DNA of 64,000 nucleotides from IMG/VR virus record IMGVR_UViG_3300033388_006651, positions 64,001-128,000 of that record, one strand, 5' to 3'. Shown one piece after another: positions 5,639 through 21,917 of this stretch; within the stretch, counting starts at the first letter, position 1; each line of letters begins with the position of its first letter. The notes below the pieces were generated by a model that saw only the letters and a list, made by a program, of their open reading frames with translations, was not told the DNA's origin and did not search any database. The DNA is from a virus. Both the position numbers and the translations under genes were made by a program.

Positions 5639-6844
5639 ATGCTCGTCCTGTTCCCGTCTGACCCTTTTGAGACCTACAAGCCCGAGCCGGACTACGTCCA
5701 GGAGATCGAGATCGCAAAAGAGTGCGGCCACGAGGTTGCCTTCATCCATTGGGAAGCCCTGGTGAACGATGACGACGCTGCCGCGGCCATCAGGAAGGTT
5801 CCTGTTTTCGAGGATTCCACCCCTGCCATCTACCGGGGTTGGATGCTGACCTCCGAGCAGTACGAGAAGCTCTACGCAGAGCTCCAGATCCATGACGTTG
5901 ATCTGTTGACCACTCCCGACGCCTACCGTAAGGCCCATGAGTTCCCTGGGTGGTACTTGGAGATCCCGAAAGCGACTCCGGCGTCGGCGATCATCCAGAA
6001 GCATGAGATCAGCATGGAGAGGCTGCTCAGCAGGGCCAAGGAGATGCTCGAACAGTACGAGCACGGCATCATCATCAAGGACTACGTGAAAAGTCGGAAG
6101 CACGAGTGGGAGGAGGCGTGCTTCATCCCCGATATGTCCAAAGCTGAGGTGGTGATCGCCAACTTCCTCGAGCGCCAGGGTGACGCTCTCCAAGGCGGCG
6201 TTGTGCTCCGGGAGTTCGTGCCGCTCAAGTCGATCGGTAAGCACCCTGACTCGGGGATGCCAATGGGCGAGGAGTTCCGCATCTTCTGGATGAACGGTCG
6301 AGTGGCCGCCGCTGCGGAGTACTGGCCTTCCGAGTTCTACATCGGTGAGGAGCGTGAAGATGAGAACGCAGGTGACGGGAGCACGTACCGTGTGCCTCAT
6401 GCCCTGAGCACTCTCCCCGATCCACAGTCGCTTCTCGAACTCCTCGAAAACATCGACAACCCGTTCGTCTCGATGGACCTTGCGCGTGCCGAGGATGGTG
6501 AGTGGTTCGTCATGGAGATCGGCGACGGTCAGGTCTCTGGGCTCCCGCGCCCCAAGCTCGATGCCCGGCTCATTTACAGCCGGCTCGATCGGTTGCTCGG
6601 GCCTCCTGGGCTTGCCTCGGACGCGACACCGATGACCCAGGCACAGTTCGCCGGTATGACGTGCCACGCCGAAGGCTGCGACCACACCGGCCACGACACC
6701 GAGATGTACCTGCACCCCAAGTGCCACGTCGGTTCTCCGACCTGGGCGATTTACGAGGACGGCGTCATCAACGTGAAGTGTGCCGAGTGCAAGACGCTCG
6801 TGGTCAGAATCGCGGTTGACCCCGGTACGGTCGTCGAAGATTAG
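5639..6844 (+). CDS. ATP-grasp protein (R2K-like) with C-terminal Cys/His domain
   Basis: IYRGWML, IIKDYVKSRKHEW.EACFI, EFRIF, MDLA..EIGDGQVSG; start reassigned to ATG 5639. Confidence 0.75.
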   Translation: MLVLFPSDPFETYKPEPDYVQEIEIAKECGHEVAFIHWEALVNDDDAAAAIRKVPVFEDSTPAIYRGWMLTSEQYEKLYAELQIHDVDLLTTPDAYRKAHEFPGWYLEIPKATPASAIIQKHEISMERLLSRAKEMLEQYEHGIIIKDYVKSRKHEWEEACFIPDMSKAEVVIANFLERQGDALQGGVVLREFVPLKSIGKHPDSGMPMGEEFRIFWMNGRVAAAAEYWPSEFYIGEEREDENAGDGSTYRVPHALSTLPDPQSLLELLENIDNPFVSMDLARAEDGEWFVMEIGDGQVSGLPRPKLDARLIYSRLDRLLGPPGLASDATPMTQAQFAGMTCHAEGCDHTGHDTEMYLHPKCHVGSPTWAIYEDGVINVKCAECKTLVVRIAVDPGTVVED

Positions 6845-7050
6845 AGGGCGTGGTCTCGAATGGCCTTGGTCAGCCGGCGCACTTTATTGGTGAAAATAGA
6901 GTAGAACCGGGGGTCCACTTCGTGCAGGAGATGGAGGAGAGATTCGATCTCGGCCTCGGCATCTTCCTGGTCCACGATGTTCTTGGCGACGGCACGGGTG
7001 CAGTCGGGCTGAGAGGTGAGCCAGTGGTTGATGCGTTCTTCGTAAGTCAC
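6841..7050 (-). CDS. hypothetical protein
   Basis: 69-aa helical ORF. Confidence 0.5.
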   Translation of the reverse strand: MTYEERINHWLTSQPDCTRAVAKNIVDQEDAEAEIESLLHLLHEVDPRFYSIFTNKVRRLTKAIRDHAL

Positions 7051-7119
7051 GATCTAGGTGTATCGCAGGGTCTTGATCCGCCTCGGATCAAGCGCCGTCG
7101 AGAAAGTTGAAGAATTCGT

Positions 7120-7148
7120 TTGACTCGGCGTCTTAGTCCGCGTACACA
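7120..7148 (+). promoter_or_regulatory. sigma70-like promoter of the main tRNA operon
   Basis: TTGACT-N17-TACACA. Confidence 0.65.
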
Positions 7149-7195
7149 GAAATGGTCGCCGTCCCTTGGCAGGAACGCGACTCAAAGTCCCCGCC

Positions 7196-7288
7196 ATGAA
7201 ACACTCCACGACATACACAGCTACGACAACGACTACGGTCGTCGTGGCCGTCGTATTGCCCATTATGGGCGATATGACCTCGTGTTGA
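7196..7288 (+). promoter_or_regulatory. Thr/Val-rich leader peptide MKHSTTYTATTTTTVVVAVVLPIMGDMTSC*
   Basis: 9 Thr and 5 Val in 30 codons; followed by hairpin TTCCCGGCG/CGCCGGGAA. Confidence 0.75.
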
Positions 7289-7380
7289 GCATTTCCCGGC
7301 GTTGACCAAAACATCAAACGGCGCCGGGAACCCCCAAAGGGTTTGCTTCGCACGTTCAAAGGCCACGCTGGCTCCCATTC

Positions 7381-7456
7381 GCCGGTGTAGCTCAATTGGT
7401 AGAGCACTGGTTTTGTAAACCAGGGGTTGCGGGTTCGAGTCCCATTACCGGCTCCA
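7381..7456 (+). tRNA. tRNA-Thr(UGU)
   Basis: CTGGT TTTGTAA ACCAG; CCA end. Confidence 0.95.
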
Positions 7457-7487
7457 AGTATTTCTCTTCACCCAAGGAACAGACAAC

Positions 7488-7562
7488 GCCTTTGTAGCTC
7501 AGTGGTAGAGCAGCTCATTCGTAACGAGCAGGTCGTGGGTTCGATTCCCACCTTGGGCTCCA
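7488..7562 (+). tRNA. tRNA-Thr(CGU)
   Basis: TTCGTAA loop; CCA end. Confidence 0.92.
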
Positions 7563-7564
7563 AG

Positions 7565-7603
7565 CACCAACACCAACACCAACACCAACACCAACACCAT
7601 CAC
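7565..7603 (+). repeat. (CACCAA)n hexamer tandem repeat between tRNA-Thr genes
   Basis: caccaa x5 followed by caccatcac. Confidence 0.9.
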
Positions 7604-7611
7604 CGACATAA

Positions 7612-7686
7612 GCCCTTGTAGCTCAGTGGAAGAGCGCTTCCTTGGTAAGGAAGAAGTCACGAGTTCGATTCTCGTCTTGGGCTCCA
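7612..7686 (+). tRNA. tRNA-Thr(GGU)
   Basis: CTTCC TTGGTAA GGAAG; CCA end. Confidence 0.93.
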
Positions 7687-7837
7687 GGAACGCAGGACCC
7701 TCGTTCGAAGGTCACAAGCAAAAGGTAAAGACATCTGTTTTTCACACAGAAGACTGCGAGTTCGATTCTCGCCTTCCCCGCCATTTATGGGGAAGTGGTC
7801 ATAAGACGCACTCACCCCGCACACTCTCCTGCGTTCC
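7687..7837 (+). ncRNA. CACAAGC-module RNA carrying a circularly permuted tRNA-Glu(UUC)
   Basis: Outer stem GGAACGCAGGA/TCCTGCGTTCC; tRNA 3' part (7724-7783, ends GCCA) precedes the 5' part GGGGAAG-TG-GTC (7789-7804). Confidence 0.8.
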
Positions 7838-7854
7838 TTAATTTTCACCCTAAT

Positions 7855-7937
7855 CCCAGCGCCTCGTAGAGCGAGGCACACGACAGCAGCTTCGCTTCGA
7901 GGCGAAAATGGCAGGCGACCGGACGGCCTGTGGGATC
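7855..7937 (+). ncRNA. putative multibranch structured RNA
   Basis: ATCCCA/TGGGAT closing stem around three hairpins. Confidence 0.4.
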
Positions 7938-7998
7938 AAACAACCGATTTTTCTCAACCCCAACTTCAACCCCCAACGAACAGAAAGGACCGAGCACG

Positions 7999-8136
7999 AT
8001 GAACATCGAAAACGATGACTGCGATGATGTAGATGATACCTACGGAGCAGTGGCGCAGTTGGTAGCGCACTCGGTTGTCAGCCGAAAGGTCGCCGGTTCA
8101 AGTCCGGTCTGTTCCGCCAAGGGGGTGTTGGTCTAG
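7999..8136 (+). promoter_or_regulatory. Asp-rich leader ORF MNIENDDCDDVDDTY... reading through tRNA-Asp
   Basis: GAAAGGA RBS; 6 Asp in 8 codons directly before tRNA-Asp; stop inside the second tRNA-Asp. Confidence 0.75.
8044..8119 (+). tRNA. tRNA-Asp(GUC)
   Basis: TTGTCAG loop; GCCA end. Confidence 0.92.
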
Positions 8137-8198
8137 TTGGTTATGACGCTTCCCTGTCACGGAAGAAATCGCGGGTTCAAGTCCCGCACATCCCGCCA
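8122..8198 (+). tRNA. tRNA-Asp(GUC)
   Basis: CTTCC CTGTCAC GGAAG; GCCA end. Confidence 0.95.
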
Positions 8199-8204
8199 TT
8201 TTTT

Positions 8205-8279
8205 AGTCCTGTAGCTCAGTGGAAGAGCATTCCCGTCACATGGGAGAGGCCATCGGTTCGACCCCGATTGGGACTACCA
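8205..8279 (+). tRNA. tRNA-Val(CAC)
   Basis: TTCCC GTCACAT GGGAG; ACCA end. Confidence 0.88.
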
Positions 8280-8288
8280 AGAAAACAT

Positions 8289-8363
8289 AGCTCCGTAGCT
8301 CAGTGGCAGAGCAACACCTCGACATGGTGAAGGTCGTCGGTTCGATCCCGACTGGGGCTACCA
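8289..8363 (+). tRNA. tRNA-Val(GAC)
   Basis: ACACC TCGACAT GGTGA (C33); ACCA end. Confidence 0.88.
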
Positions 8364-8422
8364 ACACAACAAGTTACTAAGACACAAGGCCCTCCGTTCC
8401 ATTTTGTGCTACGCTCAGAAGA

Positions 8423-9097
8423 GTGAAGCCGGACAAACAAAAAGAGGCGCGTAGACTGCGTAAGCAGGGCCTTTCTTTGAGTGAGATCGTTACCAAAATT
8501 GGATGCGCAAAAAGTTCGGTTAGCCGCTGGACCCGGGATATCCCTCTCACTAAGACTCAAGTCAAAAACCTTCGACGAAAGGAAGATCAAGGACGACTTA
8601 AAGGCCGTATTGCAGCCGCTACCCATCCCAACTCTCCGAAACAGGTGTGGGCTAAAAAACGAGATGAAGCACGTCAAAAAGGGCACGAAGAGATTTCCCG
8701 GATCGATGACATCTCTCTCAAAATACTCATCGCGGCACTGTACTGGGGGGAAGGGTCAAAGGGTCGTAACAGTTTTTCCATAGCGAACACGGACCCTGCA
8801 ATGGTCCGCCTTATTGCCGCCTTTCTTCGAAAACATTGTCAAGTTCCTGAAGAGCGCCTTCGTTTTCGCGTCTACATTCATCCTCATTTGAGTCTCCGAA
8901 AAGCTCGTATTTACTGGGCTAAAATTGCAGGAACCTCCCCTAAAAATATCGCATCCACCACCGCTGTAAGCTCAGCTAGCCAAGGAAAGAAGGACTCGTG
9001 CCCTTACGGCACTTTTCAAATCACGTACTGTGACACCCTGTTTCGGTCTCGCATAGAAGGCTGGATGGATGCCTTGAAAGAACAGATACCGGGTTAG
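8423..9097 (+). CDS. HTH plus LAGLIDADG-like endonuclease inserted in the tRNA-Val cluster
   Basis: N-terminal HTH (GLSLSEI..KSSVSRW), ALYWGEG..F.IANTDP motif; more AT-rich codons; stop lies inside tRNA-Val(UAC). Confidence 0.7.
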   Translation: MKPDKQKEARRLRKQGLSLSEIVTKIGCAKSSVSRWTRDIPLTKTQVKNLRRKEDQGRLKGRIAAATHPNSPKQVWAKKRDEARQKGHEEISRIDDISLKILIAALYWGEGSKGRNSFSIANTDPAMVRLIAAFLRKHCQVPEERLRFRVYIHPHLSLRKARIYWAKIAGTSPKNIASTTAVSSASQGKKDSCPYGTFQITYCDTLFRSRIEGWMDALKEQIPG

Positions 9098-9161
9098 CTC
9101 AGTGGTAGAGCGCTGCCCTTACAAGACGGATGCAAGAGTTCAATTCTCTTACCCGGTACCA
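9088..9161 (+). tRNA. tRNA-Val(UAC)
   Basis: CTTACAA loop; ACCGGGT/ACCCGGT-ACCA. Confidence 0.9.
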
Positions 9162-9201
9162 GACCTCAAACCTCAACCTCTAACCACGAAAGGAACCGAC
9201 C

Positions 9202-9264
9202 ATGGAAAAAGAAGACAGCGACATTAGCGACATTATCTACTCGGCCCGTGGTCCAGTCTGGTAA
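9202..9264 (+). promoter_or_regulatory. Ile-containing leader ORF MEKEDSDISDIIYSARGPVW* reading into tRNA-Ile
   Basis: GAAAGGA RBS; ATT, ATT, ATC codons just before tRNA-Ile(GAU); stop in the D-loop. Confidence 0.65.
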
Positions 9265-9316
9265 TGGATGTCGCTCTGATAAGGCGAAGACGGAGGTTCA
9301 AATCCTCCCGGGCCGA
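9242..9316 (+). tRNA. tRNA-Ile(GAU)
   Basis: TCGCT CTGATAA GGCGA; CGGCCCG/CGGGCCG-A. Confidence 0.9.
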
Positions 9317-9326
9317 CCGACTACAT

Positions 9327-9403
9327 GGACGTGTAGCTCAGTTGGTTAGAGCGCAGCCCTGATAAGGCTGAAGTCGAAAGTTCAAATCTTTCTACGTCCA
9401 CCA
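9327..9403 (+). tRNA. tRNA-Ile(GAU)
   Basis: CAGCC CTGATAA GGCTG; ACCA end. Confidence 0.95.
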
Positions 9404-9424
9404 AGAGATTTCCAAAACACATAT

Positions 9425-9499
9425 AGCGGGATGGCGCAGTCAGGTAGCGCGCTGGGCTCATAACCCAGAGGTCGTCGGTTCAAATCCAACTCTCCGCTA
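9425..9499 (+). tRNA. tRNA-Met(CAU), initiator-like
   Basis: CTGGG CTCATAA CCCAG with three G-C pairs; small acceptor-stem irregularity. Confidence 0.88.
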
Positions 9500-9505
9500 C
9501 TAAGG

Positions 9506-9663
9506 GCAGTAGAAGTCTGCTTGCGAAATATCTCCCTTCACCGGGAAGAGACGCTAGCGAACAAAACTTCATCCTCGCAACGGAGTTGAGGGGAGAGCAG
9601 TAGGAGATCTGCTTGCGACAATAGGCCCCGTAACTGGGTATCGAAGATAGCGAACAAAACTCC
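9506..9663 (+). ncRNA. tandem pair of a structured RNA motif (GCAGTAG..TCTGCTTGCGA-hairpin-TAGCGAACAAAACT)
   Basis: Two copies, 9506-9570 and 9597-9663, with conserved flanks and different central hairpins. Confidence 0.65.
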
Positions 9664-9672
9664 AACACTTGA

Positions 9673-9750
9673 CGCGGGTTGGGGAAGTCCGGCCATCCCG
9701 GTGGGCTCATAATCCACAGACCCTCGGTTCAAATCCGAGACCCGCTACCA
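9673..9750 (+). tRNA. tRNA-fMet(CAU)
   Basis: C1-U72 mismatch, CTCATAA loop, ACCA end. Confidence 0.92.
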
Positions 9751-9809
9751 AATCCAGTTCGACAGTGTGCGCCCGTGCGAGCCGAACCGAGTGTAGAAAC
9801 GGGCCTCAT

Positions 9810-9887
9810 GCCAGAATAGCTCAGTTGGTTAAGAGCGCTCCCCTCATAAGGGAGAGGTCATCGGTTCAAATCCGATTTCTGGTACCA
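9810..9887 (+). tRNA. tRNA-Met(CAU), elongator or Ile2 type
   Basis: CTCCC CTCATAA GGGAG; ACCA end. Confidence 0.9.
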
Positions 9888-9904
9888 CAAGAAACCAAGA
9901 AGCC

Positions 9905-10018
9905 ATGAACATCCACCTGAAACAGTTGCCCATCGGCACGGCCAGTCGCATCTCGTTGTTTGCGGCCGGACAGGTGTGTTCTGCCTATCTCCCCAATCTG
10001 GAGACAGGTAGCGGATAA
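9905..10018 (+). promoter_or_regulatory. 37-aa leader peptide of a putative attenuator
   Basis: MNIHLKQLPIGTASRISLFAAGQVCSAYLPNLETGSG* just before alternative terminator/antiterminator pairings. Confidence 0.55.
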
Positions 10019-10041
10019 CCCTCAGCTCGATCATGGCGCCT

Positions 10042-10077
10042 AAAAGCCCGTCGAGCTCCCTGCTCGCCGGGCTTTTT
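10042..10077 (+). terminator. intrinsic terminator (attenuator)
   Basis: AAAAGCCCG-TCGAGC..GCTCG-CCGGGCTTTTT; AGCTCGA at 10024 can sequester the 5' arm. Confidence 0.75.
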
Positions 10078-10245
10078 CGTGCTCGGGCCAAGGATCAACG
10101 GCCCTCTCGAGCCCTTTTTCGCCAAACCCTCCCTGGGCCCTCCTTTTCGGACATTTTCACGAACTTTTCACGAACCAAACCAACCACGGGGTACAAGGGA
10201 CGAGCCCGAGTGCTCTGCTTTTCACGAATCAGGACAGACAAGCCA

Positions 10246-12114
10246 ATGGACAACAAAGAAACACTCGGACCCGCAGAGACCATCATCCAGTCACTGCTGG
10301 CCTACTCAGATCACATCTACCACGGCCGCCCCGGCGTCGTGGTGCCCGACGCGCGATCCACGACCGGAGTGCGATGGGACCCCGTCACCCACAAGGTCGG
10401 AGAGGACGGCGTCAAGACCGTTCTTCGCCTCACGCGAAACGGCAAGAAGACCATTCGTACCGAGATCGGCACGATGAACGGCGACAATCGTGTGAAGAAC
10501 GCGGGTGCCGATGTCGGCCTGTACCGCAAGAGCGGCCTCTTCCCAGAGGTTGCCCTGTGGTTCTACAAGCAGATCGCTGAGGTGTGGACGCTCGACAACG
10601 AATTCGCTGCTCGGTGGGCGTCGTACGCCTTCCGTCAGGAGCACCGTGACCTCAAGGTCATGCTCGCTGCGTTCATGCTCGTTCAGTCGCGTAAGGGCGA
10701 CCCCGTCATGGACGGGGGTGAGCGTCTGTTCGACGACGAGGACTACCGTGACGTGGGCGAGGCCATGGTCCTTCTCCTTGAGAAGGGCAACGACCTCAAC
10801 CCGAAGCTCCTGCTTCGGATCTACGATGTCCTGAACCTGCCCGAGATCGCAAAGATCAACCACGAGCTCGGCTTCGGCAAGTCCGCCAAGCGTCCGTTCC
10901 TCGGTCGTTGGCCCAAGGCGATCGACAAGTACCTTCGGTACCGCGAGGAGAACCCGAAGCTGCTCGAAGGGCTCGTCAACAAGGCTGCTTTCGGCAACAC
11001 CGTCAAGACTCTGGCTCGGCGTATCGGCTACAAGCCAACGTCCGACAAGTTCTTCGCTACCCTACGCTGGAAGCAGAAGCAGGCTGAAGACGGGCGTCGT
11101 GAGATGGCCATCGGTAAAGCCGTGAGGGCTGCTGAGTCGTGGGATCACCTCGACGAAGCCGGTGTTTGCGAGCTCATCGAGAAGAACAAGCCTGGCTGGA
11201 AGCGGATCGTGGGTCTCCTTCCTGCGAAGATCGGGGTCACCCGTGCGGTGATGGCTGCGACCATCGAGTCGGGCGGTCTCTCGGACAAGGATCTCATCAT
11301 CCTCACTCCAACGATCGAGGATCTTGGTCTGTTCAAGGTCCAGGAGATCAAGGCGCGTCATGCTGCGGCTCTCGCCAAGGCAAGCGACATGCGTGCGGCT
11401 AACATCGCCCGCAACGTTCGGTCCAAGGATCTCAAGGAGGAGATGGAGACCGGTGCCGACAAGGCAGCTCAGAAGGCTGCTGAGGAGGTCATCAAGAACC
11501 TGCGCCTCTACGTCGTCATCGACCGTTCGGCGTCGATGCAGGGAGCACTGGAGAAGGCGAAGCCACTGATCGCCAAGCTCATTCAGGCAATCCCAGCCGA
11601 GCGTCTGCACGTTTCGACGTTCAACACGATCGGTAAGGTGATCACCTTCAAGCACCACTCGACCGCTGGGGTCGAGGCAGCTTTCCGGGGCGTCAACGCC
11701 GGAGGGGGCACGGTGCACGCAGAAGGTGTTCGGGTTCTGGCTCAGTTCCCGCCTGCGGCAGACGAGGACTCCCTGATGATCTTCATCGGGGACGAGGGCG
11801 AGCGTCGGCACTTTGCCGAAGCTGTGGAGGCATCTGGTCTCCGTCCCCTGGCCTTCGGGCTCCTCGCCACGGTGGGTCCTCGTTGGGGTCGCGGTCAGGC
11901 GATTCGGGACACGGCTGCTCGACTGGACATCCCGTGCTTCGAGATCGATGACCGCACCTTTGATGGCGACCCGTACGCCATCCCGCGTACGATCAGGAAC
12001 CTGATCGCGGCTACCCCTGTGGGGGTGAACACCGGTCGTCGCGTCGTCCCGCGCGTGACGCTGGTGGGTCAGATCCTGGAGACCGAGATTCTCCAGAAGC
12101 CCAACTGGGCATAG
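10246..12114 (+). CDS. Ro60/TROVE-like protein with C-terminal vWA domain
   Basis: Long basic helical N-terminal region plus VIDRSASM MIDAS, GGGT, FIGDEG; the Ro60 relationship is inferred from architecture and ncRNA context; start reassigned to 10246. Confidence 0.6.
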   Translation: MDNKETLGPAETIIQSLLAYSDHIYHGRPGVVVPDARSTTGVRWDPVTHKVGEDGVKTVLRLTRNGKKTIRTEIGTMNGDNRVKNAGADVGLYRKSGLFPEVALWFYKQIAEVWTLDNEFAARWASYAFRQEHRDLKVMLAAFMLVQSRKGDPVMDGGERLFDDEDYRDVGEAMVLLLEKGNDLNPKLLLRIYDVLNLPEIAKINHELGFGKSAKRPFLGRWPKAIDKYLRYREENPKLLEGLVNKAAFGNTVKTLARRIGYKPTSDKFFATLRWKQKQAEDGRREMAIGKAVRAAESWDHLDEAGVCELIEKNKPGWKRIVGLLPAKIGVTRAVMAATIESGGLSDKDLIILTPTIEDLGLFKVQEIKARHAAALAKASDMRAANIARNVRSKDLKEEMETGADKAAQKAAEEVIKNLRLYVVIDRSASMQGALEKAKPLIAKLIQAIPAERLHVSTFNTIGKVITFKHHSTAGVEAAFRGVNAGGGTVHAEGVRVLAQFPPAADEDSLMIFIGDEGERRHFAEAVEASGLRPLAFGLLATVGPRWGRGQAIRDTAARLDIPCFEIDDRTFDGDPYAIPRTIRNLIAATPVGVNTGRRVVPRVTLVGQILETEILQKPNWA

Positions 12115-17552: not shown

Positions 17553-17678
17553 GAAGCAACCACTGCCCGTAAGGCTCACAAGCAAAGTAGCTCAGTGTAG
17601 AGCGTCTGTCCTGAAAACAGAAGGTCGCGGTTTCATCACCGTCCTTGCAACAAACCAGCTTTTCCACTCGGTCGCTTC
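17553..17678 (+). ncRNA. CACAAGC-module RNA with a degenerate tRNA-like payload (CCTGAAA loop)
   Basis: GAAGCAACC/GGTCGCTTC P1, GGCT/AGCT P2, TAGCTCAG..AGAGC D arm. Confidence 0.72.
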
Positions 17679-21602: not shown

Positions 21603-21680
21603 CGGTTTCAAGGTAACTCTCATGTTGACGCAAGCACATACCCAGCTCCCCGATGCGGGAGCCGACTACAACACCATCAT

Positions 21681-21757
21681 GGTGTCCGTAGCTCAGTTGG
21701 TAGAGCGTTCGCTTGTGACGCGAGAGGCCGCGGGTTCAAACCCCGTCGGACACCCCA
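21681..21757 (+). tRNA. tRNA-His(GUG)
   Basis: G-1/C73, TTCGC TTGTGAC GCGAG, CCA end. Confidence 0.95.
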
Positions 21758-21842: not shown

Positions 21843-21917
21843 GCCGCGGAAGCTGACTTGGTACGCAAGCGCTGGACTGAAAATCCGGAGGTGACAGTTC
21901 GATTCTGTCCCGCGGCA
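21843..21917 (+). tRNA. tRNA-Phe(GAA)
   Basis: GCCGCGG/CCGCGGC-A, CTGGA CTGAAAA TCCGG. Confidence 0.92.

Follow-up and report, generated by a model that had tools for sequence, protein, structure and literature searches.

The window, by which we mean the whole stretch of 64,000 nucleotides analysed, comprises bases 64001-128000 of a single virus record of 146.8 kb from a marine sediment metagenome, and its source is an uncultured giant phage. All the tRNA genes of the 146.8-kb record fall inside the window. A same-strand array annotated with ARAGORN occupies positions 7381-9887 and consists of three Thr, two Asp and two Val genes, a 224-aa ORF, a further Val gene, two Ile genes and three Met genes. 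We found neither a sigma-70-like promoter nor, on the + strand, a terminator-like site in the region 6800-10200, and since no such signal lies inside the array it is inferred that the array is likely transcribed as one precursor. Two extra tRNA genes missed by ARAGORN were found with Rfam at 17581-17650 and 21843-21917 (42 and 59 bits). The features surrounding the first of the two Ile genes are the following:

9088-9161: tRNA-Val(UAC), with its CCA end at 9161
9162-9187, + strand: G-poor, C/A-rich tract of 26 nt with one G, directly after the CCA end of tRNA-Val(UAC)
9188-9194, + strand: Shine-Dalgarno-like (SD) motif GAAAGGA, with a spacing of 7 nt to the ATG
9202-9264, + strand: leader ORF of 20 codons plus TAA, found by translation, with its ATG at 9202-9204
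9223-9237, + strand: Ile codon block with ATT at 9223-9225, ATT at 9232-9234 and ATC at 9235-9237, all read by the anticodon GAU
9242-9318, + strand: tRNA-Ile(GAU), copy 1 (ARAGORN), with C1-G72 as first pair, T at -1 and no encoded CCA
9327-9403, + strand: tRNA-Ile(GAU), copy 2 (ARAGORN), 8 nt downstream of copy 1, with an encoded CCA and no leader of its own

The leader frame translates as MEKEDSDISDIIY. Thirteen of its codons lie before the tRNA, the fourteenth spans the junction and the remainder is inside tRNA-Ile. Three of the final six codons before the tRNA are Ile codons, the last of which ends 4 nt short of tRNA +1, and the frame also holds three GAC Asp codons. The Ile leader is a translatable mini-gene of cognate codons fused to a phage tRNA-Ile gene. 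The C/A tract ahead of it is an unstructured lead-in and possibly a ribosome standby site, and motifs of the GAAAGGA type also occur ahead of long ORFs elsewhere in this phage genome. No variants were found within the leader in contigs from four DNA runs. Both tRNA-Ile genes were recovered with the Rfam tRNA model at 61.7 bits (copy 1, 9242-9316) and 73.5 bits (copy 2, 9327-9400), for a gathering threshold of 29. Taken alone, the codon content of this leader is suggestive and not decisive, as three or more Ile in 12 codons are expected by chance with P about 0.006 (at the 3.3% Ile of the long ORFs of the phage, and uncorrected for about 20 tRNAs and three frames).

A preliminary description had likened this leader to an Asp leader of the same array, and the two indeed share one layout of C/A tract, GAAAGGA, ATG, short frame and cognate tRNA. 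The distal ATT, ATT and ATC codons that it placed before two tRNA-Ile(GAU) genes are likewise present, as are the three Asp codons that it remarked on. Its statement that the peptide ends in Tyr just before the tRNA cannot be kept, however, as the frame continues for seven codons into tRNA-Ile, where the TAA at 9262-9264 lies in the D-loop; nor is the Tyr conserved, being S, E, N or H in the relatives.

Several other observations were made in and around the array. The 224-aa ORF (8423-9097) has only a weak N-terminal match to HTH/DNA-binding domains, and its end overlaps the start of tRNA-Val(UAC). In a contig of a relative from a cold-seep metagenome the segment 8353-9168 is absent, and with it the 224-aa ORF and tRNA-Val(UAC); position 8352 is joined to 9169 with 10 other letters between, and the Ile cassette directly follows tRNA-Val(GAC). 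The segment 8353-9168 looks like an insertion by which the array acquired a tRNA gene. Between tRNA-Thr(CGU) and tRNA-Thr(GGU) the spacer is taken up by a (CACCAA)n-like repeat (7563-7611), and a unit of about 85 nt occurs twice between the first and second tRNA-Met genes (9501-9672). In a tRNA-like stretch at 7687-7837 the 3' half (anticodon arm, T arm, 3' strand of the acceptor and CCA) apparently precedes the 5' acceptor strand; a partial Rfam tRNA match was obtained at 7717-7772, and a similar element follows tRNA-Thr(GGU) in the relative L002 (about 9040-9160). One or two ATG codons are found at or overlapping the 5' end of tRNA-Met genes (window 9807-9809, L001:9502-9504 and L002:16474-16479), that of L001 being preceded by an AAAGGA motif; these may be minimal Met leaders, or chance.

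Relatives were collected as loci around homologues of the neighbouring vWA-domain protein (10033-12114), which gave about 150 loci with 1651 tRNAs and 1331 unique contexts. These relatives are uncultured phages, and their contigs reach 619 kb. No loci were obtained with the upstream ATP-grasp protein as a probe for relatives, and among deposited phages the search for relatives at the DNA level gave only tRNA-sized matches. The only deposited relative, reached through the vWA protein, is Virus Rctr197k (KX853510), whose tRNAs are without leaders.

The Ile cassette was found before tRNA-Ile(GAU) in six diverged relatives (L100, L020, L026, L027, L028, which is the same as L001, and L030, which is the same as L002) with differing flanks and genomic positions, and this class is limited to the closest relatives, where the vWA identity is about 64-71%. 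The cassette travels together with its tRNA, and in L030 the two lie at a distance of 6 kb, beyond the vWA gene. In the relatives the leaders are 11-15 codons long, with 2-4 of these for Ile, and share an S-[D/E]-I core. In the alignment of seven sequences (A3) the ATG and the G that follows it, the Ser-Asp/Glu-Ile core and a second ATT are invariant, whereas the lead-in and the other codons are variable. Length differences between homologous Ile leaders leave the Ile codons in the frame of the ATG, and synonymous exchanges with retention of the amino acid (ATT/ATC, GAT/GAC, CAT/CAC) were observed in the leaders. Six of the seven Ile leaders and all ten Asp leaders have a motif of the AAGGA or GGAG type 4-13 nt before the ATG. 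Correct SD spacing, invariant ATG, cognate codons in frame and synonymous exchange are all signs of translation.

A G-poor tract of 13-35 nt (about 12-14 nt in L099 and L100) lies ahead of the SD in all the Asp and Ile cassettes of the relatives. Pooled inter-tRNA spacers are not C/A-biased and some other spacers of the window are C/A-rich without any ORF, which makes the tract specific to the cassettes and a few window spacers. The position of the stop is not conserved, as it falls at +21, +33, +34 or beyond +170 in the Ile leaders and beyond the tRNA in most Asp and His leaders. The tRNA-Ile genes attached to a leader start with C in six of the seven loci.

Leaders of the same design stand before other tRNAs, and those of the window, together with the His leaders of relatives compared with it, are listed here:

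7950-8136, + strand: Asp sister cassette with C/A tract, SD at 7983-7989 and Asp-rich leader ORF at 7999-8136
21622-21681, + strand: decayed His-type leader preceding tRNA-His (21682-21757)
L099:17892-17951, L035:8911-8970 and L030:16875-16923: His leaders in relatives, compared with window 21622-21681

The Asp leader has its ATG at 7999 and contains six Asp in 14 codons ahead of tRNA-Asp, which starts at 8044; the frame crosses all of this tRNA (8044-8119) and stops in the next tRNA-Asp (8122-8198). Asp-rich frames with SD and ATG precede tRNA-Asp at no fewer than 12 loci, including the window, and have 4-8 Asp in 8-19 codons, with Asp runs of six and eight in the leaders of L028 and L030. 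The Asp and Ile leaders of L100 are built on a common 9-nt unit, repeated twice, which differs mainly at the cognate codon (GAT vs ATT), and to judge from the letters this unit is the clearest sign of one cassette having been retuned. The Asp and Ile cassettes probably derive from a common ancestor, although this is not demonstrated. In the His class a His-His-His run two codons before tRNA-His is kept in L099, L035, L028 and L030; in the window the homologous frame is intact and the run is replaced by Tyr-Asn-Thr-Ile. This decayed leader, and the many relatives that pack the same tRNAs without a leader (Rctr197k, for example), indicate that the device is dispensable. Finally, Lys-rich frames with SD and ATG were found before tRNA-Lys(UUU) at about a dozen loci.

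Short frames of less certain standing were also seen beside tRNA genes. On the - strand of the window, at 1950-1982, a 10-codon ORF (MFCMKLKSKL) with three Lys ends about 52 nt upstream of tRNA-Lys(CUU) (1820-1896), and its MKLK start is like that of the Lys-rich leaders abutting tRNA-Lys(UUU), several of which share a G-P-K motif. At about L010:435-470 (G002) a 10-codon frame with SD and ATG, in which Trp and Cys are each encoded once, ends 8 nt short of tRNA-Trp; the genes for tRNA-Trp (477) and tRNA-Cys (554) lie behind it, and it is perhaps a bivalent leader serving the two rarest amino acids. At L009:18380-18395 (G002) GAAAGGA and an ATG stand two codons before tRNA-Gly(UCC), with a frame that crosses the tRNA and has no Gly run, and in G002 there are also SD-like motifs before other tRNAs where no ORF follows. 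An SD beside a tRNA is thus not always the mark of a cognate leader.

The preliminary description had proposed that, if the cassette were collected from relatives, its distal codons would be found to track the anticodon. A context was scored as positive when at least three cognate codons occurred in the last 12 upstream codons, in the best of three frames. The test covered about 880 unique contexts from roughly 150 loci, chosen for having 40 nt or more without another tRNA. The results for four amino acids were:

Asp: 14 of 37 cognate contexts vs 22 of 842 other contexts (p=8e-12)
Lys: 14 of 52 cognate contexts vs 35 of 827 other contexts (p=2e-7)
His: 5 of 24 cognate contexts vs 15 of 855 other contexts (p=1e-4)
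Ile: 6 of 40 cognate contexts vs 32 of 839 other contexts (p=0.006)

The distal codons do track the anticodon in these four classes, and they do so only upstream on the sense strand, as the antisense-strand and downstream-flank controls were null. None of the remaining sixteen amino acids showed significant cognate enrichment upstream in the same test. Permutation of the tRNA labels gave z=3.9, the observed sum being reached in 0 of 2000 shuffles. The positives form 12, 14, 4 and 5 clusters below 75% identity and are diverse, not near-copies. The Fisher tests count related loci as independent, which makes the p-values optimistic; even so, on the evidence of the codons, four classes each matching their own tRNA would be hard to obtain otherwise. 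Ile, with three conserved acidic residues alongside its Ile codons, has the weakest enrichment of the four classes. The distance from the last cognate codon to tRNA +1 is narrowly held, at 5-6 nt in ten of ten Asp leaders, 4-7 nt in seven of seven Ile leaders and 6-7 nt in three His leaders.

Codon choice in the leaders favours the rarer synonym, namely codons ending in U (Ile, Asp and His) or AAA (Lys). Of the ATT and ATC codons together, 71% are ATT in leaders vs 17% in genes, and the corresponding shares are 67 vs 41% for GAT, 75 vs 38% for CAT and 59 vs 20% for AAA, the last standing before tRNA-Lys(UUU). The bias to A/T-ending codons could come partly from the lower G+C content of the spacers (52% vs 59%). 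Beyond the relatives, a search of viral contigs for a (GAY)4 plus tRNA-start pattern gave one chance match that is not a tRNA. A search of 185,579 prokaryote genomes for (GAY)3 placed 4-7 nt before an E. coli-type tRNA-Asp 5' end yielded two matches, both lacking an in-frame start. There is no sign of the device in bacteria with these patterns, which are narrow.

The leaders are nearly structure-free. The Ile leader of the window folds with only -2.6 kcal/mol, 194 of 200 shuffled sequences fold at least as well, and a positive fold z was obtained for six of eight leaders. An Rfam scan of positions 1-24000 at E<=1 gave only tRNAs and sub-threshold Plastid-ycf2 matches sitting on tRNA genes. A hairpin attenuator was considered and excluded: the leaders are unstructured, there is no terminator, and the 4 nt between the last Ile codon and the tRNA leave no room for one. 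A T-box riboswitch was also rejected, with no Rfam match, an unstructured leader and no Stem I or T-box sequence.

We favour the reading of the Ile leader as a translated, cis-acting sensor of the supply of charged tRNA-Ile, as no other reading accounts for the fact that every leader uses the codons of the tRNA to which it is attached. With no expression, ribosome or processing data to draw on, we regard the chances of this reading as evenly balanced. The idea of a reusable sensor retuned to the adjacent tRNA, as first put forward in the preliminary description, is borne out as far as the retuning of codons is concerned, both by the class enrichments and by the repeated unit of L100, whereas the sensor function and its sign are only inferred.

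The fixed spacing of about two codons, together with the lack of terminator and structure, fits a local steric mechanism better than hairpin attenuation. Under such a mechanism, scarce Ile-tRNA(GAU) would make the ribosome pause on the ATT and ATC codons. The helicase site of the 30S subunit, where the mRNA enters, lies at about +11 from the P-site codon. With the last Ile codon in the A site, tRNA +1 would be about 10-13 nt downstream of the first base of the P-site codon, and a ribosome paused there is predicted to touch the acceptor stem without melting it, while one or two codons further on it would unwind the tRNA. The paused ribosome would halt just short of the tRNA and allow the nascent tRNA to fold and mature. 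If Ile-tRNA were plentiful, ribosomes loaded at the strong SD would enter the acceptor stem and D-arm as far as the stop at +21, and their invasion would keep the precursor unfolded and lower the tRNA yield. On balance, the abutting tRNA would be under negative feedback. This sign of the regulation is uncertain, since the RNase P site would itself be masked by a ribosome paused on the final cognate codon, and the processing step is not shown.

A broader proposal is that of a terminator-free switch of giant phages in which the ribosome gates tRNA maturation, with the cognate codons placed about two codons ahead of tRNA +1 and with a modular cassette retuned to at least Asp, His, Ile and Lys. 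Starvation for one aminoacyl-tRNA, through amino-acid shortage or a host anticodon nuclease, would in that case park the ribosome outside the nascent tRNA and allow it to mature, whereas ribosomes in good supply of that aminoacyl-tRNA would drive into the precursor and ruin its fold. We put this proposal forward tentatively and consider it rather unlikely to be right as it stands.

The same translated sensor might instead act through Rho-dependent polarity, where Rho loads on the C-rich, G-poor tract, a ribosome that finishes fast lets Rho terminate, and a parked ribosome blocks Rho so that RNA polymerase continues through both tRNA-Ile genes and the tRNA-Met genes. The conserved C/A-rich, G-poor tract before the SD does resemble a rut site, no intrinsic terminator is present, and the leader heads a block of five tRNA genes. 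However, the tract is short, with the lengths given above, and lies upstream of the ORF, not behind it; under polarity, non-cognate tRNAs would be regulated along with the cognate ones (Met after Ile, Val after Asp), and the fixed distance of 4-7 nt between last codon and +1 would be left unexplained. This output is improbable in our view, though still a rival to be reckoned with.

The mini-frame could also be translated for a purpose other than sensing, in which case its agreement with the tRNA would be a by-product; translation might hold the precursor open, shield it from nucleases or supply a small acidic or basic peptide that has a function of its own. What speaks for this is that non-cognate residues are conserved too, namely the S-D/E core and acidic N-terminus of the Ile leaders, a G-P pair that several Ile and Lys leaders have and, in the Asp leaders, a P ahead of D. 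Left unaccounted for is the enrichment of each of four leader types for the amino acid of the abutting tRNA, with clean controls, and we hold this reading to be decidedly improbable.

Under a third explanation the leader is an untranslated RNA element whose codon-like triplets pair with anticodons, in the manner of a T-box specifier, or with the tRNA body, and so control folding. Cognate codons are complementary to the anticodon by definition, and the MFE fold for the window has 8 nt of the leader able to base-pair with tRNA-Ile in its D/anticodon-stem region. That 8-bp pairing was set aside as it is without comparative support. Leader/tRNA duplex energies are no better than those of codon-shuffled leaders in 15 of 17 cassettes, the Ile leaders of L030 and L026 lying in the 3-5% tail; the whole-region fold is not better than that of shuffled sequences (z=+0.6), and neither a T-box nor any other Rfam family matches. 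The conserved SD, invariant ATG and maintained frame would all go unexplained, which makes an untranslated element very hard to believe in. The last possibility, an ordinary tRNA spacer with an ATG frame and three Ile codons, can draw on a window-alone P of only about 0.006 before correction for some 20 tRNAs and three frames and on the other C/A-rich window spacers that lack an ORF, but the cassette in six diverged relatives and the parallel Asp, His and Lys classes make it untenable.

The closest known systems are the leader-peptide attenuators of amino-acid operons (hisL, pheL, thrL, ilvL, leuL and trpL) and the pheM leader of pheST. Rho-dependent control by leader peptides is known from tnaC of the tna operon and from mgtL and mgtP of the Salmonella mgt operons. 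In phage lambda, the bar minigenes of 2-3 codons sequester host tRNA through drop-off of peptidyl-tRNA. The phage cassette resembles the leader-peptide attenuators, such as that of pheL (PMC3082878), in having a short frame with SD and ATG, clustered codons of one amino acid and a position in cis before the regulated gene, in its presumed signal, the speed of the ribosome, and in the reuse of one design with different codons for each target. Unlike them, it has no alternative hairpins or intrinsic terminator, is unstructured and abuts its target; it is also borne by a phage, and its target is a tRNA gene entered by the frame and not a biosynthetic or synthetase gene. As the defining terminator/antiterminator feature is missing, we do not file the Ile cassette as a member of this group.

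With the Rho-dependent leaders, among which are the polycysteine leaderless uORFs of mycobacteria (bioRxiv 10.1101/834739), the cassette shares the dispensability of an intrinsic terminator, the presumed control of downstream expression by the position of a paused ribosome on a tiny ORF, and a C-rich, G-poor tract nearby. It differs in that its C/A tract is short and upstream of the ORF, in that a part for Rho is only conjectured and in that its target is a tRNA. Like the proposed sensor, T-box riboswitches sense the state of a specific tRNA via a codon and control the pathway of the same amino acid, but unlike the phage cassette they are not translated, they are bound by the uncharged tRNA itself, and they carry Stem I and a conserved T-box sequence. 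The lambda bar minigenes are likewise tiny phage ORFs with a strong SD and an effect tied to one tRNA species, Ile tRNA in the case of bar, but they are not linked to a tRNA gene.

A full-text search of the literature gave no report of leader ORFs that control tRNA genes, and to our knowledge the regulation of phage-carried tRNAs is essentially unknown. The Ile cassette represents leader-peptide sensing applied to phage tRNA genes, in a form that is monovalent, free of a terminator and fused to a single cognate tRNA, with the mechanism being inferred. Genes for tRNAs are usually treated as constitutive passengers of their arrays. If the sensor reading is true, there would be direct, species-specific feedback from decoding speed to tRNA production, and the leader-peptide principle would be extended, without a terminator, from amino-acid and synthetase genes to tRNAs. 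The cassette would be a compact natural device for reading out how much of one chosen tRNA is available. Anticodon nucleases are known to attack the tRNAs for Lys, Asp and His, and the finding is relevant to the ways in which phages deal with starvation or with the cleavage of particular tRNAs by host defences.
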